From Eubacteriales bacterium (lineage in GTDB: Bacteria > Bacillota > Clostridia > Oscillospirales > CAG-272), in NCBI GenBank assembly GCA_045533775.1, contig JAZSIK010000024.1, positions 5,510-69,509 of the forward strand: DNA of 64,000 bases, given 5' to 3'. Position numbers and translations under genes: made by a program. Shown one piece after another: positions 23,913 to 64,000 of the stretch. The notes beneath the pieces are model-generated. The model ran no database searches, was not told the origin of the DNA, and saw nothing but the letters and a program-made list of their open reading frames with translations. The first letter of the stretch is position 1; every line of letters starts with the position of its first letter.

Positions 23913-24977
23913 ATGACAACAAAAGTTGACTTATTATCGCTTTTGCCAAGCGAACTTGAGGATTTTTTTATTTCTATCGGTGAGCCAAAGTTCCGCGCAA
24001 AGCAGACCTTTACCAGACTTCACCGCGGTGAGCGGATCGGCGAGATAACCAATCTGTCAAAGGCCCTTAGAGAGCGGCTGACAGAGGAAACGCTTGACAC
24101 TCTGCCCACCGTAGAGGAAAAGCTGGTCTCCAAAATAGACGGTACTGTAAAATATCTCTTCCGTCTTTATGACGGCGCTTGTATTGAGAGCGTTTTTATG
24201 AAATATAAGCACGGCAATACTCTTTGTATTTCCAGCCAGGTCGGTTGCCGTATGGGCTGCAGATTCTGTGCCTCCACTATTGGAGGTAGGGTGCGCGACC
24301 TTTTGCCCTCCGAGCTTGTCGGTCAGGTCATAGCCGCCGAGCGAGATAGCGGAGAGCGTATATCAAATATTGTTATGATGGGCATCGGCGAGCCTCTTGA
24401 TAACTATGACAACGTCATTAAGTTCTTAAAGCTTGTTAATCACCCTGACGGACTGAATATCGGTTACCGCCACATTTCGCTTTCAACCTGCGGAGTTGTC
24501 AGCGGAATTGAAAGGCTGGCGGAGGAGAATCTGCCTATAACTCTCTCAATATCACTTCACGCGGCAAACGATACCCGCCGATCAGAGATAATGCCTATAA
24601 ACAATAAGTGGGGAGTAGATGCGCTCCTTTCCGCCTGCCTTTCCTACTATAACAAAACAGGCAGACGTATTTCCTTTGAATATACGCTTATTTCCGGCAA
24701 AAACGATAGCGAGGCAGACGCCACCGAGCTTGCTGACGTGCTGAATAGGGTATTTCGCCCCGCGGGTGTCCCCGTTCACGTCAACCTTATCAGAGTAAAC
24801 GAGGTTAAGGAAACGGGCTTCAAGAAGGGCACGCCCGAATCGGTTAACGCTTTTGCTAAAACTCTGGAAAAACGCGGAATTGTTGCTACCGTAAGGCGAA
24901 AGCTTGGTAGTGATGTAAATGCTGCCTGCGGTCAGCTTCGCCGTTCTAATCTTAATAAAAAGGAAGAAGAAACATAA
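23913..24977 (+). CDS. rlmN: 23S rRNA (adenine2503-C2)-methyltransferase, radical SAM
   Basis: CRMGCRFCAS radical-SAM cluster, GMGEPL-like motif (MMGIGEPLDN), C-terminal CGQL. Confidence 0.95.
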   Translation: MTTKVDLLSLLPSELEDFFISIGEPKFRAKQTFTRLHRGERIGEITNLSKALRERLTEETLDTLPTVEEKLVSKIDGTVKYLFRLYDGACIESVFMKYKHGNTLCISSQVGCRMGCRFCASTIGGRVRDLLPSELVGQVIAAERDSGERISNIVMMGIGEPLDNYDNVIKFLKLVNHPDGLNIGYRHISLSTCGVVSGIERLAEENLPITLSISLHAANDTRRSEIMPINNKWGVDALLSACLSYYNKTGRRISFEYTLISGKNDSEADATELADVLNRVFRPAGVPVHVNLIRVNEVKETGFKKGTPESVNAFAKTLEKRGIVATVRRKLGSDVNAACGQLRRSNLNKKEEET

Positions 24978-24978
24978 C

Positions 24979-25917
24979 TTGATTACAGAAAAATACGGTA
25001 AGGTTGTAAAGGGCCTTGGTGGACTTTATGAGGTGAGAATTGATGAGGGCGACTCGGTCAGTCGCCTTGCCTGTCGCGCCAAGGGCGTGTTAAAGAGAGA
25101 TGAAACAAAGGTGCTCATCGGCGATAATGTAACCGTCAGCATTGATGATTCTACCCCCGACGGCATCGTTATCTCCTCTATCGCACCGAGAAAAAACTCG
25201 CTTATCCGTCCCCCTCTTGCAAACCTTGATTATCTTTTTATTGTTTTTGCCGCGGCAAAGCCCTCACCGGTTATTGAAACGGTGGATAAGCTTATTGCCA
25301 TAGCGATACATAATTCAATCAATCCTGTTGTGGTGATCACAAAGTCAGATCTTCAGTCGGAGGCAGCCGAGGAATACGCGGCAATATATCGCCTTGTTGG
25401 TATCCCCACCTTTATCACCTCATCCGAGGCGGGTGAAGGAATAGATGCTCTTGCGGACTACATTAAGCAGAATGTAACAGAGGGCAGGACCTCTGCCTTT
25501 GCAGGTGCATCGGGAGTAGGCAAATCCACACTGATGAACGCCCTTTTCCCCGGTCTGACTCTTGCTACCGCTGAGATCTCCCGCAAGATTGAGCGCGGCA
25601 GACATACCACGCGTCATGTGGAGATCTTTGACATTGAAGGTAAGGCTGACACAGGATTTCTTGCTGACACACCCGGCTTTTCGCTGATAGATTTTGCTCG
25701 CTTTGACTTCTTTGGTCTTGACGAGCTGCTTCCTACCTTCCCGGAGCTTCTCCCGTATATCGGCCTCTGCCGTTATGCAGATTGTGCTCATGTTGGCGAG
25801 GGAGAGGATGAGTGCGCGGTGGCAAAGGCCTGTGCAAATGGTGAAATTGCTCCCACGCGCCTTGAGTCCTATCGCGCGATATACAGGGTTCTGAAGGAGA
25901 AAAACTCCTATAAGTAA
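24979..25917 (+). CDS. rsgA: Ribosome small-subunit-dependent GTPase A
   Basis: ORF track 24919..25917 overlaps rlmN. TTG 24979, right after the rlmN stop, gives MITEKYGKVVKGLGGLYEV. Circularly permuted GTPase (TKSD, GASGVGKST) and zinc knuckle CRYADCAH. Confidence 0.9.
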   Translation: MITEKYGKVVKGLGGLYEVRIDEGDSVSRLACRAKGVLKRDETKVLIGDNVTVSIDDSTPDGIVISSIAPRKNSLIRPPLANLDYLFIVFAAAKPSPVIETVDKLIAIAIHNSINPVVVITKSDLQSEAAEEYAAIYRLVGIPTFITSSEAGEGIDALADYIKQNVTEGRTSAFAGASGVGKSTLMNALFPGLTLATAEISRKIERGRHTTRHVEIFDIEGKADTGFLADTPGFSLIDFARFDFFGLDELLPTFPELLPYIGLCRYADCAHVGEGEDECAVAKACANGEIAPTRLESYRAIYRVLKEKNSYK

Positions 25918-25944
25918 AACGCATCTTGTCCATAGATGCGTTTT
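25917..25944 (+). terminator. Rho-independent terminator
   Basis: AAACGCATCT / AGATGCGTTT perfect stem followed by a T-tract. Confidence 0.8.
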
Positions 25945-25976
25945 ACAAAAAAACTTAAAAACTTTTATAAAACCTA

Positions 25977-26005
25977 TTGACAAACAGATAAATATATAGT
26001 ATAAT
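25977..26005 (+). promoter_or_regulatory. Promoter of rplJL
   Basis: TTGACA (25977-25982), 17-nt spacer, TATAAT (26000-26005). Confidence 0.65.
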
Positions 26006-26009
26006 AACT

Positions 26010-26150
26010 AAGTCCGAAGACAGCAGGTTCCGGTAAAAGCAAAAGCTTTCCTGCCGAGGTAAGTAAACTTTAATATCTTGTATTAAGTTGTCCTTTTCTC
26101 GGGGGTGGTCTGCGCCTTATCGGAAAAGGATATTTTTTATTGATTTTTTA
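26010..26150 (+). promoter_or_regulatory. Ribosomal protein L10 leader (autoregulatory 5-prime UTR)
   Basis: About 150-nt structured-looking UTR ending in a hairpin (CTTTTCTCGGGGGTGG...CGGAAAAGG) plus TTTTTT immediately upstream of rplJ. Position matches the known Firmicute L10 leader; not verified by covariance search. Confidence 0.5.
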
Positions 26151-26163
26151 TGGAGGTGAAACA

Positions 26164-26712
26164 ATGCCAAGTAATAAGATTCTTGAAGAGAAGAAGCAAG
26201 TTGTTGAAGCACTTGCCGCTAAGCTCCAGTCCGCTGCAGCAGGCGTTCTCGTGAAGTATGAAGGCATTACAGTGGCTGATGATACCGCTCTTCGTGCGGC
26301 TCTTCGTAAGGCTGGTGTAGAATACACCGTTATGAAGAACACTCTCACCGGTCGTGCTTGCGACATCGCAGGTTACGGTGAAATGAAGCAGCACCTTAAC
26401 GGTATGACCGCTATCGCAATCAGCCAGGACGACCCCATCGCTCCCGCTAAGATCATGAAGCAGTATGCTGATAAGATCAGCACCTTTGAGATCAAGGCTG
26501 GTTTCGTTGACGGTGGCATTCTTGATCAGGCAGGCGTTATTGAGCTCGCTGAGACTCCCTCTAAGGAAGTTCTCATTGGCCGTATGATGGGCAGCCTTCA
26601 GTCGTCCCTTTACAGCTTTGCATACGTACTTCAGGCAATTATTGACAAAGATGGCGAGGCAGCTCCCGCTGAGGATGCAGCTCCCGCTGAAGAGGCTCCC
26701 GCAGAGGCTTAA
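26164..26712 (+). CDS. rplJ: 50S ribosomal protein L10
   Basis: ORF track 26140..26712; ATG 26164 follows GGAGGTG. Typical L10 sequence with an extra Ala/Pro/Glu C-terminal tail. Confidence 0.95.
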   Translation: MPSNKILEEKKQVVEALAAKLQSAAAGVLVKYEGITVADDTALRAALRKAGVEYTVMKNTLTGRACDIAGYGEMKQHLNGMTAIAISQDDPIAPAKIMKQYADKISTFEIKAGFVDGGILDQAGVIELAETPSKEVLIGRMMGSLQSSLYSFAYVLQAIIDKDGEAAPAEDAAPAEEAPAEA

Positions 26713-26766
26713 TTCCTGCGGAAATTAACACAGTTAAACATTTCTTAAATAACGGAGGATTTTAAA

Positions 26767-27138
26767 ATGAACGAAAAGTCTACTCAGATCCTTGAAATCG
26801 TAAAGGGTCTTACCATTCTTGAACTCGCTGACCTTGTAAAGGCACTTGAGGAGGAGTTCGGCGTATCCGCAGCTCCCGTAGCAGTAGCAGCAGCTCCCGG
26901 CGCAGCAGCAGCTCCCGTTGAGGAGAAGACCGAGTTTGACGTTGTACTTAAGGCAGCAGGCGCTTCCAAGCTCAACGTTATCAAGGTTGTTCGTGAGCTT
27001 ACCGGTCTTGGCCTTAAGGACGCTAAGGATCTCGTTGAGGCAGCTCCTAAGACCATTAAGGAAGGCATCGCTAAGGACGAGGCAGAGAAGATCGCTGAGC
27101 AGCTTAAGGCAGCAGGCGCAGAGGTTGAGGTTAAGTAA
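26767..27138 (+). CDS. rplL: 50S ribosomal protein L7/L12
   Basis: 123 aa; Ala-rich hinge and [20 protein letters not shown]-terminal domain. Confidence 0.97.
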
Positions 27139-27157
27139 TTTCATCTTCATAGAAAAA

Positions 27158-27190
27158 ATAGGTGACCACCTGCTGGTCGCCTATTTTTTT
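27158..27190 (+). terminator. rplL terminator
   Basis: ATAGGTGACCA-CCTGC-TGGTCGCCTAT hairpin followed by TTTTTTT. Confidence 0.85.
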
Positions 27191-28737
27191 ATTTTACTTT
27201 GTTTGGGTGTATTATTTGTATAATGAAACAGTAAAAAAACACTTGATATTTGATAGTAAAAACTACCATTTTTAAGGCAAAAAACGTACCGTGATGTTTA
27301 TTTTATTATATTTTTCAAGGATTTTTGACCGTTTATGACATATTTTGATAAAAATGATATATTAGTAAATTATGCTTGTTAAGGGATAGACACTTCGTAT
27401 CAGAACAAACAATGAAAGTCGGTTGATGAATCTTTTTTAACAAAGCATCAGACGTTTGCTTAAAAAAACTTTTATCCTTTAATTAAAATAACAACTTAAT
27501 AATATAACAATAATAAAGTTTTCTTATATTATTTTTGTATTATTAATATAGAGAAGTTTATGACGGAGCTAATAAGTATAATTGAATAGACTCGCGGTGA
27601 GTAAATGCTTATACTAATAAATCTTGTACCTGATCTGGTTAAGTCTATCCTGAACTTGTTTTTTTCTCGGGGTGAAAAAAAGTCTTTCTTTTGTCATCGC
27701 CGATTCTTTATACAAGATAAAAGAATATTACTTCTTAATAGAATTAAAAAATGATAGTAGATTATACTCGTTTAATTTGTGCCATCTCATGTGTCATCTC
27801 ATTAATGAAAATTGATCATAATAGCAAGAGAATTATTCTAATAAAAAAACATTTTTATATCATCAAAGTGTTGCGCTTTTATGCACTAAAATATAGGGCA
27901 AATTATTGTAATTTTATATTGGAAAAATATAAGTTAGATATTCAGAAAAATCTGTATAAAAAACATCCGAAAATAATTTACTCTCTTAATTAGTAGTTTG
28001 TAAAAACAAGTAAAAAACTACATCAAAAAAGTTGTATTTATATATCAAAAAAACAGTCCTGTTTTCAAATCTTTCTGTCTGGAAATATTCCCTTACGAAG
28101 ATAATGAGAGCCTGACTGTGTTATTCCTTTTCGGCTTCTTTATTTGATTTGCCATCAATAAGGGTAAAAAAGAGGGGAAATAGCCAAAAACCTAAACAAT
28201 TGTTTACGATAAAAAGTTTTGAAAAGTTCATAATAATCTGCAAAAACTTTGAAATTAATAGAAAAATACTAAAAAAAACGAAAAAAGTTTGAAAAAATCC
28301 GAAAAGTTCGGTCAAAAATCAGAATCAAAGCTCTCTTTTTGAAAATGAACGGATTATTTATTCTTGTTTTTATCTCTTTTTGATCAAAATGTTCTTTTTT
28401 TGGTTTTTTTCTGTTTTTCACCCTTTAACGCTACCATTTTGAGCCCTAAAACACCTTGAATCATCTAAAAAATCAAGTCTTTTTGCCTGTATTTGTTCTG
28501 CAAATCACTCCATTATTTTTTGTTGCTAAGTATAATTATCTCGGTTGTAGTATCTGTTGCTACTTTGTTTTTAATCTTAATTTTTTTGATCTGTTTTTTC
28601 CTTCACTTTGGTGCATTTTCAGATGTTTTCCTCGGTGCTTTTTTCGTTATTCTACAGACTTTTTTTCCTTCTTTGTATGCTATTTTGGTATGCTTTTTTA
28701 TTCATTTTTTTGAGTTATTGTTTTCTTATCTTTCAAT
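27191..28737. other. 1.55-kb AT-rich region with no credible ORF, between convergent terminators
   Basis: Only four short low-complexity ORFs (60-123 aa, Phe/Leu/Ile/Lys-rich, no RBS). Composition contrasts sharply with the flanking genes. The plus strand is A-rich up to about 28330 and T-rich from 28330 to 28737. Confidence 0.6.
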
Positions 28738-28770
28738 AAAAAAATCGGGTGATTTTACACCCGATTTTTT
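28738..28770. terminator. Bidirectional terminator (serves glyA)
   Basis: AAAAAAATCGGGTG-loop-CACCCGATTTTTT, with A- and T-tracts on both sides. Confidence 0.85.
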
Positions 28771-28778
28771 ATGCTTTT

Positions 28779-30023
28779 TTACTCGTAAAGAGGGTACTTT
28801 CTGCAGAGGGCATTTACCCTTGCTTTTGCCTCCTCGGCATTTCCTTCAAAGTCGGAAAGTGTGAGAGAAATAATCCTTGCCACCTCTCTCATATCATCCT
28901 CGCCAAAGCCTCTGGTCGTTACAGCCGCCGTACCAAGACGAAGTCCGCTTGTAACGAAGGGCTTCTGTGTGTCAAAGGGAATGGCATTCTTGTTACAGGT
29001 AATTCCAACCTCGTCAAGCATATGCTCAGCCTCTTTACCTGTATCAACCTTCATTCCTGTAAGGTCAAGGAGCAGTAAATGGTTATCCGTTCCGCCCGAA
29101 ACCAGCTTAAAGCCCTCTTTTTCAAGCTCCGAGGCAAGCACGCTGCAGTTTTTTACTACATTTTTGGCATATTCCTTGAAGCTTGGCTTAAGTGCCTCAC
29201 CAAAGCATACCGCCTTTGCCGCGATAGTATGCATCAGAGGACCTCCCTGCGTGCCGGGGAATATGGATTTATCAATTTTCTTTGCAATTTCCTCGTCATT
29301 TGAGAGAATAAGACCGCCTCTCGGACCGCGCAGAGTTTTATGAGTGGTTGTTGTGGTTACGTGAGCGTAGGGAACAGGCGAGGGATGAGCTCCCGCGGCT
29401 ACAAGCCCCGCAATATGAGCCATATCAACCATCAGATATGCGCCAACCTCGTCTGCGATCTCGCGGAATCGCTTGAAATCAATGATTCTGGGGTATGCGG
29501 AGGCTCCTGCCAGGATCAACTTAGGCTTGGACTCAAGGGCAAGCCGTCTAACCTCGTCATAATCTATCACTCCGCCCTCGCGTGTTACACCGTAGGGCAC
29601 AATATTCCAGTATTTTCCCGAAATATTTACAGGCGAACCGTGGCTCAGATGTCCGCCGTGGGCAAGATTCATAGACAAAACGGTATCTCCCGTCTCAAGC
29701 AGAGCGAAAAATACAGCCATATTTGCCTGTGCGCCCGAGTGAGGCTGCACATTGGCATATCCTGCGCCAAAAAGCTCCTTGGCGCGCTCAATAGCTATGC
29801 TTTCAACCGTATCAACGTGCTCGCATCCACCGTAATATCTCCTGCCGGGATAGCCCTCAGCGTATTTGTTTGTCAGCGTTGTTCCGTTAGCCTCCATCAC
29901 AACCTCGGATACAAAGTTCTCGGAGGCAATCAGCTCTATTTTATTCCTCTGTCTGTTTGTTTCGCTTGTAATTGCTTCATAGAGACGAGGATCGTTTTCC
30001 TTAATAAGATTGTACTCTCTCAT
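28779..30023 (-). CDS. glyA: Serine hydroxymethyltransferase
   Basis: 414 aa; PLP-lysine motif [14 protein letters not shown]. Confidence 0.97.
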
Positions 30024-32784: not shown

Positions 32785-33516
32785 ATGAATGCTGAAAATG
32801 AAATCAGAGAGTTTCTTTTAGGTAATACAGATATAGTTGCTTTCCGCGAAAAGTATGATAGCAATAATGAAATCAATGATTTTTTGCAGAACATTGTAGA
32901 TACTTGCATTTCATCCGATAGAGGATTTATTCCTACTCCTAGATTTTTTAGAAATGAAACAGTTTTCCACCATCATTATTTATACTGTTTTGCTCAACCA
33001 GACCTCTATCCCGGATTTGTATATGGTGATGATTCTTTTGTGTCCGTGCGGAACTTTCTCACGAAGGAATGGCGTATGCTCACGCATAATGTGAGAACTG
33101 CCAGTGGTGCGTGGGCATTCTATGATGGAGTATTTGATATTTTCTATCAGTATGATCAATCTATTGAATATCGTGGACAGAAATACGAACAAGCATATTG
33201 TTATGCATTGGATGTAATTCCGCAGTATTTAAGTGGTGGACAAGCAGAAATGTATATTCAGGAACATATTATTCCTCTTTTTCTTGATACAATGCCAAAA
33301 ACTCGTAGAATAAAAGAAACCAAGGCTCGTATTCGCCAAGAGTTTAAGAGCGAAAAGGGATATCCTTGCTGGGTACAATCTTCCGATTGGCCTTTAGGCA
33401 AAGACGGTAAGCCTATGACTTATGTTAAAAAAGGGAAACGCGATGGTGATAGGCACAGTTGGATATTCCGCGACGAAAACACAGGAGAACATACCATCGT
33501 AGAGCAATTTGAATGA
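32785..33516 (+). CDS. Hypothetical protein (cassette cargo A)
   Basis: 243 aa; GGAGG RBS at 32774-32778. AT-rich codon usage (GAA/AAA/TTA) unlike the neighbouring genes; no family recognised. Confidence 0.65.
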   Translation: MNAENEIREFLLGNTDIVAFREKYDSNNEINDFLQNIVDTCISSDRGFIPTPRFFRNETVFHHHYLYCFAQPDLYPGFVYGDDSFVSVRNFLTKEWRMLTHNVRTASGAWAFYDGVFDIFYQYDQSIEYRGQKYEQAYCYALDVIPQYLSGGQAEMYIQEHIIPLFLDTMPKTRRIKETKARIRQEFKSEKGYPCWVQSSDWPLGKDGKPMTYVKKGKRDGDRHSWIFRDENTGEHTIVEQFE

Positions 33517-33519
33517 TTG

Positions 33520-33584
33520 ATAAAACACTTCATGTTGACTGTATTGGCGAAGCTATGGAGATCTTGAAAGGCAAGAAATTCTAA
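33520..33584 (+). pseudogene. Relic of the 3-prime end of a cotJC-like gene
   Basis: 33546-33569 GGCGAAGCTATGGAGATCTTGAAA matches cotJC 32567-32590 with 1 mismatch. In frame it reads ...GEAMEILKGKKF-stop, against cotJC ...FGEAMEILKNK-stop. Confidence 0.55.
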
Positions 33585-33585
33585 A

Positions 33586-33650
33586 TAAGCCTTCCCCTTG
33601 GGGAAGGTGGCATACGCCCATTGCGAGTATGACGGATGAGGTAAAAAACA
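33586..33650 (+). repeat. Multi-hairpin intergenic repeat R1, copy a
   Basis: 65 nt with 3 mismatches to 35091-35155. Contains hairpins CCTTCCC...GGGAAGG and CATACGC...GCGAGTATG. With the following hairpin, the repeat extends to about 92 nt. Confidence 0.8.
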
Positions 33651-33707
33651 GGGCGGTTTGATTAGTCAAATCGTCCTATTTACTTTTTGAAATGGGTGTG
33701 GTATAAT
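33651..33707 (+). promoter_or_regulatory. Cassette junction module 2 (type-1 hairpin plus promoter)
   Basis: GGCGGTTTGA-ttag-TCAAATCGTC hairpin (10 bp, two of them G-U pairs), TTTACT (33679-33684), 17-nt spacer with GGGTGTGG, TATAAT (33702-33707). Confidence 0.7.
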
Positions 33708-33737
33708 GTAAAAAAAGTCCAAAAGGGAGCAATTAAT

Positions 33738-34319
33738 ATGAACACCATGCGTGAAAAGATAATTAACTCAACATTTGATTATTCACAACCTTGGTTTTAC
33801 AGAAATAAATTAGCTTTAAGATGCGAGCTGGGAATAGGCAAAGGCAAAAATTATATGGATAATGCCATAGATAGAGCAATGAAAATTGCTAATTTTTTAT
33901 TTGAAAATAAGAAAATAGATGCAGCGTTTTACGATGAATATTTTATTGATGGCAAAGCATGCGAGGTTGGCAATTTTGAAATAAAAATTGATGAAATAAT
34001 CAATCTTGACATGGACGTGTTACATAGTATAGATCTAATAGACGAAGATATTGAAATAGTAAAAAGATATATTTCATATGATATTGATTTCGCAGTCTTT
34101 GAAGGTATTATAAAGAATCAAATAGATAATCAGTATTCACCTTTGGTTAGTTTCGTTTCATTTGACAATCAATTTATATTTTCCGTTTATGATGACAGGG
34201 GATGTGATATTGTTTTCTTTTCCGAGGATAAGTACAAGGAGTTTTATGATAAATTAGAGCCGTATTTTTTGGATTACGATAGAACTACGATGAAAAATAC
34301 ATACAATTCTCTGAATTAG
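33738..34319 (+). CDS. Hypothetical protein, possibly DUF3885-like (cassette cargo B)
   Basis: ORF track 33687..34319 would include the promoter; ATG 33738 follows AAGGGAG. C-terminal SVYDDRGCDIVFFS...FLDYDR resembles DUF3885 (from memory, unverified). Very AT-rich. Confidence 0.65.
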   Translation: MNTMREKIINSTFDYSQPWFYRNKLALRCELGIGKGKNYMDNAIDRAMKIANFLFENKKIDAAFYDEYFIDGKACEVGNFEIKIDEIINLDMDVLHSIDLIDEDIEIVKRYISYDIDFAVFEGIIKNQIDNQYSPLVSFVSFDNQFIFSVYDDRGCDIVFFSEDKYKEFYDKLEPYFLDYDRTTMKNTYNSLN

Positions 34320-34346
34320 ACGCGAAAATACTTCATCCTGATAACA

Positions 34347-34402
34347 GGGCGGATCCAAAAACGAGCCGCCCTATTTACTTTTTTGCGTGGGTGTGGTATA
34401 AT
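34347..34402 (+). promoter_or_regulatory. Cassette junction module 3 (type-2 hairpin plus promoter)
   Basis: GGGCGGATC-caaaaac-GAGCCGCCC hairpin, TTTACT (34374-34379), 17-nt spacer with GGGTGTGG, TATAAT (34397-34402). Confidence 0.7.
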
Positions 34403-34436
34403 TAATATAATCTATCAGTTCAGGGGGATTCATTTT

Positions 34437-35090
34437 GTGAGTAAAGAGACATATGATTTTTTAAACAACCACTTTAATTCTTTTGAAAAGATTTATAATG
34501 AAAGTAAAGATTGCATTGAGATAGTAAAGCCACAGAATGAGTGTAAGATTATAGTTGACTACATTCCCGAAGATGATTTTAGTCCTTACTTAGTATCATG
34601 GTCATATCAACATAGACATTTAGTTGATGAGGACGATGTTATTGAATATGTAAATGAAATAATAAATTGTAAAGTTTATGCAATTGAATGTTTTAAAGGG
34701 GATACAGCTGTATTTGGAGGCGAAATCAGGATAGATGATTTTGAAGATTTCTCATACGAAACACTGGAAAAGTGGTCAGGAGATTTCGGTCTTACTAAAC
34801 TGTTAGATTGTGTTGATACAGTTAAGGTTAGATTTTGGAACGGTGGATTTGATGCAACAATCGCATACGATAAAGATGGAAAACCAACTGTTGTTTTACA
34901 ATGTGATGAATGTGGAAGTAAGTTTATTAAAGCTAAATCAAAAATGATGTCGCTTTGTCCCGAGTGTGCACATATTCTCTTTGGTTATGAAAATTGCAAT
35001 CATCAATTCAAGGACGGCAAATGCGAATTGTGTCATTGGGACGGAAGTAGAAGCGATTACATAAAAAAGTTGGTGGAAAACAATAAATAA
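34437..35090 (+). CDS. Hypothetical protein with C-terminal Cys/His zinc-ribbon (cassette cargo C)
   Basis: ORF track 34383..35090 would include the promoter; GTG 34437 follows AGGGGGA. C-terminus CDECGSKF...CPECAH...CNH...CELCH. Confidence 0.6.
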   Translation: MSKETYDFLNNHFNSFEKIYNESKDCIEIVKPQNECKIIVDYIPEDDFSPYLVSWSYQHRHLVDEDDVIEYVNEIINCKVYAIECFKGDTAVFGGEIRIDDFEDFSYETLEKWSGDFGLTKLLDCVDTVKVRFWNGGFDATIAYDKDGKPTVVLQCDECGSKFIKAKSKMMSLCPECAHILFGYENCNHQFKDGKCELCHWDGSRSDYIKKLVENNK

Positions 35091-35155
35091 TAAGCCTTCC
35101 CTTTGGGGAAGGTGGCATACGAGCATTGCGAGTATGACGGATGAGGTAAAAAACA
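35091..35155 (+). repeat. Multi-hairpin intergenic repeat R1, copy b
   Basis: Near-identical to 33586-33650 (3 mismatches in 65 nt); starts right at the stop codon of the preceding gene. Confidence 0.8.
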
Positions 35156-61475: not shown

Positions 61476-61486
61476 TCAGTTTACAT

Positions 61487-61513
61487 AAAGGAGGCTTCGG
61501 CCTCCTTTTTTTT
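61487..61513 (+). terminator. Rho-independent terminator
   Basis: AAAGGAGGC-ttcg-GCCTCCTTT followed by TTTTT. Confidence 0.9.
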
Positions 61514-61533
61514 ATTTATTTTAAGATTACCTA

Positions 61534-61562
61534 TTGATTTTATCACTTTATAGTGTTATAAT
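61534..61562 (+). promoter_or_regulatory. Promoter of the repeat-protein gene
   Basis: TTGATT (61534-61539), 17-nt spacer, TGtTATAAT (61554-61562). Confidence 0.55.
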
Positions 61563-61677
61563 TGTATTTGTATAGAAATATTCGCGCGCGTAGCGAAATA
61601 TTTTATGTAAAATATATAAATAATTGTCTTATTTGTCGCATTATGGGTTTTGCGATAGATAATGAAACGGAGAGAGT

Positions 61678-64000
61678 ATGAACAAGTTATTTAAGAAAGA
61701 AAAGCTTGCAATAGCCGTGATACTTGCGCTGACATTGATTATGTCTATGGCAGTGACAGTATTTGCAGAGGGAACAGGAGAGTCTGCTCCGAAGTCCTAT
61801 TGGGACGACCCCCTCTTCTTTGAGTTTATTTTACTCGTGGTATCCTTCCTGTCGGTTACCCTTTGCACATTCCTTATTTACCGTGCTGTTAAGAACAGAA
61901 ATAAGGAGATTGAATATGAAGAGCGCGAGGGAACAGTAAAGCTATATGAGGATCTTGATGATGCTAAGTGGGATGCCCCCGATAGCGTATTTGTAGATGC
62001 TCTGGAGCCTACCGCCGCTATTCTCAGCGAGCTTGAGCCTGTTAAGCCTATTCGCGGACTTGATAACTTTGTTATCACAGAGCAGCCTATTGAGCCGATA
62101 AAGTCTATGAATATGGGCGCAGACCCCTATGTATTCAGAAGGGCGGATGATATCAGCAACGCTGTTTATGAGGCAACTCCAACCACTCCTCTTACTTTAG
62201 GTGATCTTGATTCCCACGAGGAGATCGCTGATCCCACAATGGTGAGAGAGCCTGCTTACTTTGCTCAGCCCGGATACAGTCCCTTTGTTGAGCCTCAGAA
62301 GCAGCAGACACAGCATCCCTTTATGTATGAGAATGTTCAGACCACAGCTCTTAAAGATGAGCCTGTCATTCCCGATGCTCCCGCAGCCGTAGCAGACAAA
62401 CCCATAGACCCTGCTTACACACCTTACTCTTCTCCTTATACATATATCGCAAACTCCGACATTCCCGGTGCGGTACCGTTTGTTACTCCCGCCGCGGCAG
62501 TTTATGAGAATACACAAAAAACCGTTACTCTTGAGGATGAGATCATTCCTAAGGCAGCTCCCACGCCTGCTCCCATCAGCGAGGCAGTTACCCCCAAGGC
62601 CGATCCCATTTCCTCTCTTGCTGACATTCCGATCACCATTTATACATCAGGTGATGATGACGGCGTTGTGCATATCAATGCCACGATCCTTGAAAATACA
62701 GTTAAGGCAACCACTATTGAGGATGAGCCTGTAATTGCTCCTGTAGTCCAGCCTGATCCTGTGGCAGAGGCAACAGAACCTTCTCCCTCTACACCGATAG
62801 TTTATATGCAGGTTAGAGATGACTCTCCTGTTGAGATTCCTGCGACTGAGGCTAATATCTTTGAAAATGCGGTCAAGGCGACTACTCTTGAGGATGAGAT
62901 TATTCCCATTGTTCGTGAGCCTGTTGTTATTGCAGCAGTTGCTACACCCGCAAGCGAGCCCGCAGGCAACCTCTTTGCAAACGTAGAAGAGCCTATTGAG
63001 ATTCCTGTTACCGAGGCAAATATCTTTGAGAACGTAGTTCTTGCAACCGCGCTTGAAGATGAGCCCGAGATTCCTGTTGCGGCAGAGCCTGTTGTTATTG
63101 CAGCAGTTGCTACACCCGCAAGCGAGCCCGCAGGCGACCTCTTTGCAAACGTAGAAGAGCCTGTTGAGATTCCTGTTACCGAGGCTAACATCTTTGAGAA
63201 TGCAGTTCTTGCAACCGCGCTTGAGGATGAGCCTGAGATTCCTGTTGCAGCAGAGCCTGTTGTTATTGCAGCAGTTGCTACACCCGCAAGCGATCCCGCA
63301 GGCGATCTCTTCGCAAACGTAGAAGAGCCTGTTGAGATCCCTGTTACCGAGGCTGCAGTATTTGAATCTGCTCCTGTTACCATTCTTGAGGACGAAGCAG
63401 ATGAGTTTGCAACAATTGTACCCGTTATAATTCCTGTTTCCGAAGAAACAGAATCTATCAGCGAGGCGACAACTCCCGTATCTACACCTATTATTGGCGT
63501 ATTTGCAAGCGAGGAAGAGCCTGTTGAAATGCCTGTATCTCAGGTTGCAGTATACGAAAATACCGTATCTACAACTGTGCTTGAGGATGAGGCAGCAGAG
63601 CCTGTAGTTGTAGCACCTATTACATTCGTAGACGAGGCAACAACACCCGAGTCCGAGCCTGTTGCAGCTATGTATGCTGAGGTTGAGGAGCCTGTAGTTG
63701 TTCCCACCACTGAGGCAGCAGTATTTGAGCAGACAGTATCTACAACTGTACTTGAGGACGAGGCAGAAGAGCCCGTAGTTGTAGCACCTATTACATTCGT
63801 AGATGAGGCAACAACACCCGAGTCCGCGCCCGTTGCAGCTATGTATGCTGAGGTTGAGGAGCCTGTTGTAGTTCCTGTAACCGAGGCAACGGTATTTGAA
63901 TCTGCTCCTGTTACCATTCTTGAGGATGAGGCAGAAGAGCCTGTAGTTGTAGCACCTATTACATTCGTAGACGAGGCAACAACACCCGAGTCCGAGCCCG
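61678..64000 (+). CDS. Large acidic Pro/Glu/Val/Ala-rich tandem-repeat membrane protein (5-prime partial; continues beyond the window)
   Basis: Absent from the ORF track because there is no stop in the window. ATG 61678 follows GGAGAGAG. Signal peptide MNKLFKKEKLAIAVILALTLIMSMAVTVFAEG, one TM (FFEFILLVVSFLSVTLCTFLIY), then more than 650 aa of repeats. The long minus-strand ORFs here are shadows. Confidence 0.8.
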   Translation, partial: MNKLFKKEKLAIAVILALTLIMSMAVTVFAEGTGESAPKSYWDDPLFFEFILLVVSFLSVTLCTFLIYRAVKNRNKEIEYEEREGTVKLYEDLDDAKWDAPDSVFVDALEPTAAILSELEPVKPIRGLDNFVITEQPIEPIKSMNMGADPYVFRRADDISNAVYEATPTTPLTLGDLDSHEEIADPTMVREPAYFAQPGYSPFVEPQKQQTQHPFMYENVQTTALKDEPVIPDAPAAVADKPIDPAYTPYSSPYTYIANSDIPGAVPFVTPAAAVYENTQKTVTLEDEIIPKAAPTPAPISEAVTPKADPISSLADIPITIYTSGDDDGVVHINATILENTVKATTIEDEPVIAPVVQPDPVAEATEPSPSTPIVYMQVRDDSPVEIPATEANIFENAVKATTLEDEIIPIVREPVVIAAVATPASEPAGNLFANVEEPIEIPVTEANIFENVVLATALEDEPEIPVAAEPVVIAAVATPASEPAGDLFANVEEPVEIPVTEANIFENAVLATALEDEPEIPVAAEPVVIAAVATPASDPAGDLFANVEEPVEIPVTEAAVFESAPVTILEDEADEFATIVPVIIPVSEETESISEATTPVSTPIIGVFASEEEPVEMPVSQVAVYENTVSTTVLEDEAAEPVVVAPITFVDEATTPESEPVAAMYAEVEEPVVVPTTEAAVFEQTVSTTVLEDEAEEPVVVAPITFVDEATTPESAPVAAMYAEVEEPVVVPVTEATVFESAPVTILEDEAEEPVVVAPITFVDEATTPESEP
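62917..63420 (+). repeat. Three tandem 168-bp (56-aa) coding repeats
   Basis: Units start at 62917, 63085 and 63253 (EPVVIAAVATPASEPAGDLFANVEEPVEIPVTEANIFENAVLATALEDEPEIPVAA). Near-identical, with the third diverging in its last third. Confidence 0.85.
63598..64000 (+). repeat. Second family of tandem 168-171-bp coding repeats (continues off the window)
   Basis: Units start at 63598, 63769 and 63937 (EPVVVAPITFVDEATTPESEPVAAMYAEVEEPVVVP.TEA.VFE...LEDEAE). Confidence 0.85.

Follow-up and report, generated by a model that had tools for sequence, protein, structure and literature searches.

A conserved, helically phased DNA element in the long non-coding spacer between convergent rplJL and glyA in a Clostridia lineage

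The rplL-glyA spacer

The DNA considered here, referred to as the window, is a 64,000-nucleotide stretch of contig JAZSIK010000024.1 from an Eubacteriales bacterium of the Clostridia (GTDB lineage CAG-272), and our subject is the long gap that separates two of its genes, rplL and glyA. The former encodes ribosomal protein L7/L12 and is the last gene of the rplJL operon, and the latter encodes serine hydroxymethyltransferase on the opposite strand. The gap is a true non-coding spacer in which these two convergent units terminate. Within it lies a single-copy DNA element of ~230 bp (~28130-28370), the core, which is conserved in register among relatives. The conserved property of the core is a palindrome together with helically phased A-tract/GC flanks, and these flanks predict a very strong static bend.

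Measured between the two stop codons (27139-28778), the gap is 1640 nt long and has a GC content of 26.9%, and it is by far the largest interval in the window that is free of open reading frames (ORFs). The only frames that it contains are Phe/Leu/Lys-rich and 30-123 amino acids long. An original prediction, made from the letters of the window, had described a 1.55-kb, extremely AT-rich, ORF-free block between two convergent terminators, and the sequence is as described, with no conserved ORF. The AT-richness is real when set against coding DNA, which has 47% GC, but the composition is ordinary for the non-coding DNA of this genome, because many other true intergenic regions of the window, genuine short ones, also have 23-30% GC. 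The exceptional property of the gap is therefore its length and not its composition. The picture of a featureless spacer holds insofar as the block is non-coding but fails at the conserved and strongly periodic core. The features of the locus are listed below with their window coordinates.

26767..27138, plus strand: rplL (L7/L12), last gene of rplJL and left boundary (ORF; Pfam Ribosomal_L12 on the identical protein in relatives)
27152..27190, no strand assigned: rplL intrinsic terminator, 17-bp stem flanked by an A-run and a T-run (terminator scan, both strands)
27191..28129, no strand assigned: left arm, AT-rich (A 37%, T 37%), fast-evolving and length-variable, with no ORF or Pfam signal
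27259..27345, no strand assigned: first predicted strong bend, phased T/A tracts (wedge-model curvature minimum 0.59 at ~27300)
27335..27363, plus strand: best sigma-70-like match in the block, uncertain, ATGACA-17-TATATT with TG (10/12 matches)
28130..28192, no strand assigned: left flank of the core, G/C clusters alternating with A-runs every ~10 bp (column-averaged GC profile, 8 orthologues)
28193..28206, no strand assigned: perfect 14-bp palindrome TAAACAATTGTTTA (alignment of orthologues; unique in the 64-kb window by pattern search)
28207..28370, no strand assigned: phased A-tract array, right flank of the core (alignments, periodicity, curvature, A-tract positions)
28371..28737, no strand assigned: right arm, T-rich (53% T), phased T-tracts with a period of ~11.5 bp, evolving at about the neutral rate
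28739..28770, no strand assigned: glyA intrinsic terminator, flanked by an A-run and a T-run (terminator scan, both strands)
28779..30023, minus strand: glyA (serine hydroxymethyltransferase), right boundary, convergent with rplL (ORF; Pfam SHMT on relatives)

Both terminators look bidirectional, because each hairpin lies between an A-run and a T-run. The rplL terminator is 88-98% identical across all of the relatives, and the glyA terminator of one relative, L006, has compensatory changes in its stem.

The relatives were assembled in two ways. The identical RplL protein was found on many metagenomic contigs of Clostridia metagenome-assembled genomes (MAGs) from animal-gut assemblies, and further loci were added through glyA homologues of 86-94% identity; individual loci carry L-numbers. 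In all of the loci found, rplL and glyA are adjacent and convergent, except in L095, which has a different downstream gene; the contig of L094 stops before rplL. Where the gap is gene-free it is AT-rich (25-33% GC) and highly variable in length, running from 660 nt in L006, through 701-706 nt in the L001 group, 937 nt in L099 and 1224 nt in L007, to about 1750 nt in L002, L009 and L096 (the longest being 1753 nt).

The conserved core and its predicted curvature

A blastn comparison of all gaps with one another leaves only a few shared pieces: both terminators, a short block close to rplL that is found in the long forms, and an island of ~190 nt. The island falls in the core, where nhmmer matches it at window positions 28166-28367. 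Its hidden Markov model finds exactly one copy in every gene-free gap, plus one in L100, in which it lies between a helix-turn-helix (HTH) gene and glyA. No copy is found in L091-L095 and none elsewhere in the ~1 Mb of locus sequence examined. A pattern scan for the core returned four chance hits only from a metagenome collection, and none from a viral collection.

The alignment of the island over seven lineages requires only 0-2 gaps in 157 columns. Identity between pairs averages 0.59, as opposed to 0.33 when the register is shifted, and the four-fold degenerate sites of glyA in the same seven lineages are saturated, with identities of 0.42-0.57. The palindrome takes the form CCCTAAC-N4-GTTTAC in the orthologues, with AAC-N4-(G/A)TTTAC as its invariant part, and to its right A-runs occupy fixed alignment columns. 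Between the closer pair L001 and L005, identity falls from 0.91 in the island to 0.82 in the block to its left, 0.77 in the right arm and 0.71 at the four-fold sites of glyA. These comparisons indicate that the core is under constraint and that the right arm evolves in a roughly neutral manner.

The flanks of the palindrome are phased with the helix. In a GC profile averaged over the columns of eight orthologues and centred on the palindrome, peaks recur every ~10 bp from about -66 to +151. At 10 bp the right flank reaches a normalised power of 25.5, where the 95th percentile of permutations is 4.7, and the left flank reaches 11-12.5 at 9.5-10 bp, where that of the null is 4.8; taken individually, both of the 50-bp flanks of the palindrome are significant for periodicity. 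Across the orthologues the right flank contains ~15 A-tract positions at a spacing of ~10.2 bp, and in the window it has ~9 runs of four or more A. The centres of the A/T-tracts in the window are likewise spaced by multiples of ~10 bp. The dinucleotide in front of the A-runs is TG, TC or CG and the one behind them varies, with no consensus beyond the tract itself, so that the target of selection appears to be the tracts and their phase and not the sequence of an iteron.

Periodicity is also a property of the wider gap. The AA/TT periodicity at 10.25-11.75 bp exceeds that of shuffled sequences in 11 of 11 gaps, and a scan of strong versus weak bases places the three most periodic 200-bp segments of the 64 kb in the block, at 28360 (10.2 bp), 28700 and 27860 (both 11.5 bp). 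Applied to the 20-kb loci of the relatives, the same scan ranks the island or its arms first in each.

Curvature was predicted with a wedge model, the absolute values of which are only indicative. In this model curvature in the window is strongest in two 120-bp segments, at ~27300 (minimum 0.59) and ~28290 (minimum 0.595). The most curved segment of each orthologous gap, and of each 20-kb locus, is found 60-150 bp to the right of the palindrome, and the curvature of the island is reached by no more than 0.5% of dinucleotide shuffles in nine orthologues. The periodicity statistics are independent of the wedge-model parameters, and the parameter-free scan gives the same ranking. A curved-DNA or nucleoid-protein binding region was among the possibilities raised at the outset, and this one gains computational support from the top two curved segments, the top three periodic segments and a core bend that keeps its register across relatives. 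By these models the core belongs to the physical class of phased-A-tract curved DNA, represented by kinetoplast-type DNA and the plc promoter of Clostridium perfringens, in which runs of A4-8 recur once per helical turn and a large planar bend is predicted. It is the sole class membership that the data favour, and the size of the core, its palindromic centre, its position between gene ends and its in-register conservation set it apart from any defined functional family.

The arms on either side behave differently from the core. The left arm is ~1050 nt long in the window and in L002, L009 and L096, and ~265-630 nt in the other lineages, and its strand bias also differs between lineages; the right arm is T-rich in all of them. 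By Tandem Repeats Finder, the arms of L007, L002 and L099 contain many decayed repeats, whose units measure 10-13 and 20-25 bp, and the window contains a few. Growth and shrinkage of the arms by slippage of helical-repeat-sized units would account for both the variation in length and the ~11.5-bp periodicity. The arm period of ~11.5 bp (window 27191-28129 and 28371-28737) and the core period of ~10.2 bp represent two distinct phasings within a single spacer. Periodic power in the arms rises as high as 27-29 in L007 (10560-10930 and 11180-11590) and L002 (11000-12100), as compared with a median of 2.5 in the scan of the window.

The window and L002, L009 and L096 share the long form of the gap collinearly, the sequence having otherwise diverged beyond recognition. 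By tblastx the pieces conserved among them lie at gap positions 1-62, ~120-200, ~990-1280 and ~1480-1632. The first predicted bend of the window lies ~100-200 nt past the rplL terminator and is conserved only with these long-form lineages. It retains 86% identity to L002 and L009 over 51 nt (27290-27340) despite the saturation of synonymous sites.

Possible roles of the core

To our knowledge, conserved non-coding elements in bacteria have nearly always been interpreted as RNAs or promoters. The property conserved here is instead the shape of the DNA, in the phase and position of its A-tracts, rather than sequence, RNA structure or coding capacity. We tentatively favour the view that the core is an architectural or topological site at the level of DNA, of a protein-wrapping, gyrase-like or nucleoid-protein kind, at a junction of convergent transcription. 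Both the wrapping of a protein and the topological role are inferred from the conservation, the phasing, the predicted curvature and the location, the last of these because the core has a terminator of a convergent unit on either side. Downstream of transcription units, and particularly between convergent ones, positive supercoils build up (PMC8360656).

The mechanism would run as follows. The arms would be decayed short tandem duplications, with units of 10-13 and 20-25 bp and the AT content of intergenic DNA, which expand and contract between species. The functional part would be the core, with its palindrome, its two helically phased flanks, of which the right is the longer at ~15 turns, and its strong static bend, and it would work as DNA and not as RNA or protein. 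A dimeric protein could bind the palindrome, with the phased flanks either wrapping around the protein or presenting one face to it. The core would then act as a preferred wrapping site for gyrase or for a DNA-wrapping nucleoid protein at the place where convergent transcription piles up positive supercoils.

The version of this proposal that names gyrase is rather doubtful, although several resemblances recommend it. In Escherichia coli, gyrase recognizes a symmetric motif of 130 bp with a phased variation in GC content of ~10.75 bp, and enrichment of the enzyme is seen downstream of operons with high transcription (PMC6379681). In sequences that gyrase binds strongly, one arm is extended and flexible (bioRxiv 10.1101/2025.10.21.683783). 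Like such strong sites, among them the Mu SGS, the pSC101 site and the E. coli motif (PMC6379681), the core has a roughly symmetric centre with a 4-bp core, helically phased AT/GC flanks that would favour wrapping, arms of unequal extent (bioRxiv 10.1101/2025.10.21.683783), and a position downstream of operons that are presumed to be highly transcribed. In the comparison with the gyrase motif, which has a footprint of ~130 bp symmetric about a 4-bp-staggered cleavage site, both flanks of the 4-bp-centred palindrome are significantly periodic, but the period is 9.7-10.2 bp, the right flank extends to about +150, and the mirror correlation of the flanks is only r = 0.5 at a shift of 3 bp.

A number of points weigh against the architectural reading as a whole or against gyrase in particular. 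The phased region covers ~230 bp with a period of 9.7-10.2 bp, whereas the E. coli motif covers 130 bp with a period of 10.75 bp, and the core has true A5-6 tracts and a static bend in place of a mild modulation of GC. The core is conserved at one locus in one genus, and the host is an uncultured MAG. The enrichment of gyrase downstream of operons is not hard-wired in the E. coli sequence (PMC6379681). Sister lineages with convergent rplL and glyA have a gap of 260 nt and no island, so the arrangement of the genes does not require the core. High expression of rplJL and glyA is assumed. The curvature figures depend on a wedge model with the dinucleotide angles of Bolshoy, and a promoter of a type other than sigma-70 may be present at the core.

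In its fullest form, the proposal is that a genus of gut Clostridia has evolved a dedicated element, consisting of a palindrome and ~20 turns of phased A-tracts that amount to nearly a full loop of DNA, held by purifying selection where two heavily transcribed operons converge. Its function would be that of a hard-wired sink for positive supercoils, through the loading of gyrase or a wrapping protein, or of a domain boundary, in a spacer that grows and shrinks by helical-repeat-sized tandem duplications. So complete a scheme is, in our estimate, unlikely to be right in every part. If the core is a topological or architectural site of any kind, it would show that local DNA mechanics at bacterial convergent junctions can come under selection, and a defined sequence of ~230 bp would be available for wrapping tests with gyrase and nucleoid proteins. 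Even if it is not, the 1.55-kb block has been resolved as no decayed gene, known RNA, origin or recent rearrangement scar, and most of it as fast-evolving filler at an old and variable junction.

Repetitive extragenic palindromic (REP) sequences and bacterial interspersed mosaic elements (BIMEs) of enterobacteria offer a further parallel. They too are non-coding, lie at the 3' ends of genes and often between convergent ones, and some of them bind gyrase or integration host factor. The core, however, is AT-rich, forms no hairpin and is single-copy, whereas BIMEs are GC-rich hairpin palindromes with hundreds of dispersed copies. A REP/BIME-like element or a miniature inverted-repeat transposable element was rejected on the single copy per locus (~1 Mb examined) and the lack of strong inverted repeats.

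The rival that survives best, though we think it unlikely, is that the core is a promoter region in which the phased A-tracts act as a curved, UP-like activator and the palindrome as an operator, driving an unannotated small RNA. The transcript would be either a U-rich RNA of ~400 nt running rightward to the glyA terminator or a leftward one ending at the rplL terminator, and the apparently bidirectional terminators would bound either of them. In Firmicutes, phased A-tracts are known to activate transcription from upstream of the -35 element, as at C. perfringens plc and the promoters of phage SP82, and a palindrome beside a bend is a typical operator layout. The block to the left of the core is also more conserved than four-fold sites (0.82 versus 0.71). 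The region of the candidate rightward transcript, however, evolves at about the neutral rate (0.77 versus 0.71, and 0.48 versus 0.55), and there is neither RNA structure nor a conserved small ORF. Known curved promoters have 3-5 phased tracts as against ~15 in the core, which lies between gene ends with no detectable promoter and has a conserved palindrome at its centre.

Searches for sigma-70-like sites on both strands of the window, L001, L006 and L099 found no -35/-10 pair at a conserved position, and the counts do not rise above those of shuffled sequences. The best match in the block (27335-27363) directly follows the first bend, and only its -35 half is shared with L002. Operators and alternative sigma factors were compared by eye only: LexA Cheo, Zur, CodY and Spo0A boxes and sigma-B, extracytoplasmic function, sigma-E and sigma-K promoters were considered and rejected, none fitting the invariant positions and spacing of the core.

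An improbable account of the core, though probably the correct one for the arms and so for most of the 1.55 kb, is that it is neutral filler. Under this account units of ~10-12 bp slip under AT-biased mutation, the periodicity is a by-product, and the island is conserved by ancestry or recombination only. The decayed repeats of 10-13 and 20-25 bp in the arms, gap lengths that range from 660 to 1753 nt, the about neutral rate of the right arm, a composition the same as that of ordinary intergenic DNA, and the absence of the island from sister lineages are all as this account would have them. It does not fit the core. Neutral AT-rich repeats are expected to gain indels fastest, and yet the island stays in register in seven lineages with 0-2 gaps in 157 columns and 0.59 identity, where synonymous sites are saturated and the arms cannot be aligned, and the predicted bend falls at the same place in every lineage.

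Quite improbable, in our view, is a mobile or accessory origin, by which the block would be the leftover of a foreign cassette or a landing pad, and the core a former regulatory, origin or centromere-like iteron site. What speaks for it is the cargo, which differs between relatives at exactly this junction. At 88% glyA identity, L092-L094 have an alpha/beta-hydrolase gene there; L095 has a protein of more than 1900 amino acids in the corresponding position; and L100, at 90% glyA identity, has an XRE-type HTH gene and a 434-amino-acid prepilin-like gene, with the core just downstream of the HTH gene. Acquired DNA is typically low in GC. Plasmid and phage origins combine a palindrome, a bend and an AT-rich tract, and the parC and tubC centromeres consist of tandem units of ~10 bp. 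Like the iteron centromeres and origins of parC of R1, tubC and lambda ori, the core has tandem units of about one turn on one face of the DNA, a bend beside an AT-rich tract and a palindromic protein site.

The core differs from these systems in being chromosomal, at a fixed locus and conserved across species, and it is constrained with no partner genes nearby. Its repeat units share no consensus beyond the A-run, its GC content equals that of native intergenic DNA, and the block contains no terminal or other strong inverted repeats. Integrase, transposase, rep and par genes are absent next to the gap in every locus; direct repeats on either side of the cargo were not searched for. By blastn the block matches nothing in phage and plasmid collections, and the viral collection likewise gives no match; tblastn of the cargo of the relatives (hydrolase, HTH, 434-amino-acid and giant proteins) finds no trace in the window block. 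An iteron centromere or origin of a plasmid or phage was rejected on these grounds of consensus and similarity, with no par, tub or rep genes flanking any locus. The original prediction had suggested a decayed insertion, for which neither these searches nor six-frame Pfam provides any homology, and an attachment hotspot. Of the latter, the part that stands is the variation of the cargo, which is small (1-2 genes); gene tables show no integrase beside it, and att-type direct repeats were not searched for.

Chromosomal sites of replication and recombination were also considered. An origin of replication was rejected: the block contains no DnaA box (TTATCCACA-like) with up to one mismatch, and counts at up to two mismatches are at or below the shuffle mean in 11 of 11 intergenic regions, in agreement with the earlier reading, which saw no such boxes. 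That reading is also borne out for tRNA, for which a tRNA/tmRNA search of the block was negative, and for long internal repeats, of which there are none, the repeats being short, degenerate and tandem. The reverse strand of the L001 group contains TTATGTAAACA, which we take to resemble the XerD arm of the Bacillus subtilis dif site; the window, L006, L007 and L099 do not share it, no terminus-like switch in skew is present, and a dif site was rejected.

The last rival, a missed structured non-coding RNA or a small or frameshifted protein, has in its favour a long, terminator-insulated and partly conserved gap with hydrophobic frames of 64-85 amino acids, and is very unlikely, being largely refuted by the searches that follow. 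At the gathering threshold no Rfam family matches the block, and a search at E<=10 gives only weak, below-threshold matches (E>1) that lie mostly at the flanking terminators. The core with its right flank folds no better than shuffled sequences (z = -1.05 on the plus strand and +1.49 on the minus strand), and RNAalifold finds 0 consensus pairs in nine orthologues. With promoter-like sites neither enriched nor conserved, the non-coding RNA locus that had been proposed finds no support. Turning to proteins, six-frame Pfam searches of the block give 0 hits at E<=1, and no gene is called in the AT-rich gap of 12 of 12 gene-free loci. A conserved small ORF was rejected, as the 64-amino-acid hydrophobic frame on the minus strand over the core is broken in L005, L006, L007 and L002. 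Matches by tblastx between orthologous gaps occur in all frames, on both strands and at the same four places, and this independence of frame and strand implies conservation at the level of nucleotides rather than of coding.

Age of the junction and its surroundings

The loss of rplL-rpoB synteny is an old, genus-level feature. It had been taken as a rearrangement breakpoint, which is right in that rpoB does not follow rplL. The adjacency of rplL and glyA is, however, shared down to 86% glyA identity, so the block is not the scar of a recent rearrangement. In the closest GTDB representatives, at no more than 82% glyA identity, a glyA scan of the genome contigs finds no adjacency to rplL.

At the 86% level, in L091, the junction is 260 nt long and contains two copies of a 96-nt hairpin unit. 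Two to three copies of this unit are found at the junction downstream of rplL in L091 (5290-5449) and in L092 and L093 (6395-6627), where the AT-rich island is absent. The ends of the unit are long and inverted, GAAATTTTGTTTATAGC...GCTCTAAAGCAAAATTTC, with a hairpin, GGCGTATATAAATACGCC, inside; conservation of the unit between L091 and L092 is 82%, and it looks like a REP-like or 3'-untranslated-region element.

The cargo of L100 (5727-7488) is a divergent pair, in which the HTH gene encodes 100 amino acids and the 434-amino-acid protein has a prepilin-type N-terminal methylation motif. The two genes are separated by a promoter region of 154 nt with 24% GC, and 218 nt separate the HTH gene from the conserved core downstream of it.

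Upstream of rplJ-rplL (window 24919-27138), the genes are priA-def-fmt-rsmB-rlmN-rsgA in place of nusG-rplK-rplA, an order common to close relatives. Rfam matches the window only once, at the L10 leader that precedes rplJ (25996-26147), and because priA-def-fmt-rsmB-rlmN-rsgA precede them, the rplJL operon and its leader have moved as a unit away from rplKA and rpoBC. Most relatives have a gene for an HTH_26 (Cro/C1-type) protein of 67-68 amino acids between rsgA and rplJ (L001: 8911-9117), sometimes with an opposite-strand gene of 135-154 amino acids. The HTH_26 gene is absent from the window (25918-26139), L006 and L009, and the site, 1 kb upstream of the gap, is a second small place of variation.

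Downstream of cotJABC-like genes, window positions 33500-35100 have 31-34% GC, a strongly positive GC skew and ORFs at 33687-34319 and 34383-35090. This is another variable region, because relatives have different small genes there without Pfam hits. The second-longest apparent gap of the window, at 61476-62196, is a stretch of 721 nt with 40.5% GC and no ORF of at least 80 amino acids, and it lies between ORFs on the plus and minus strands.

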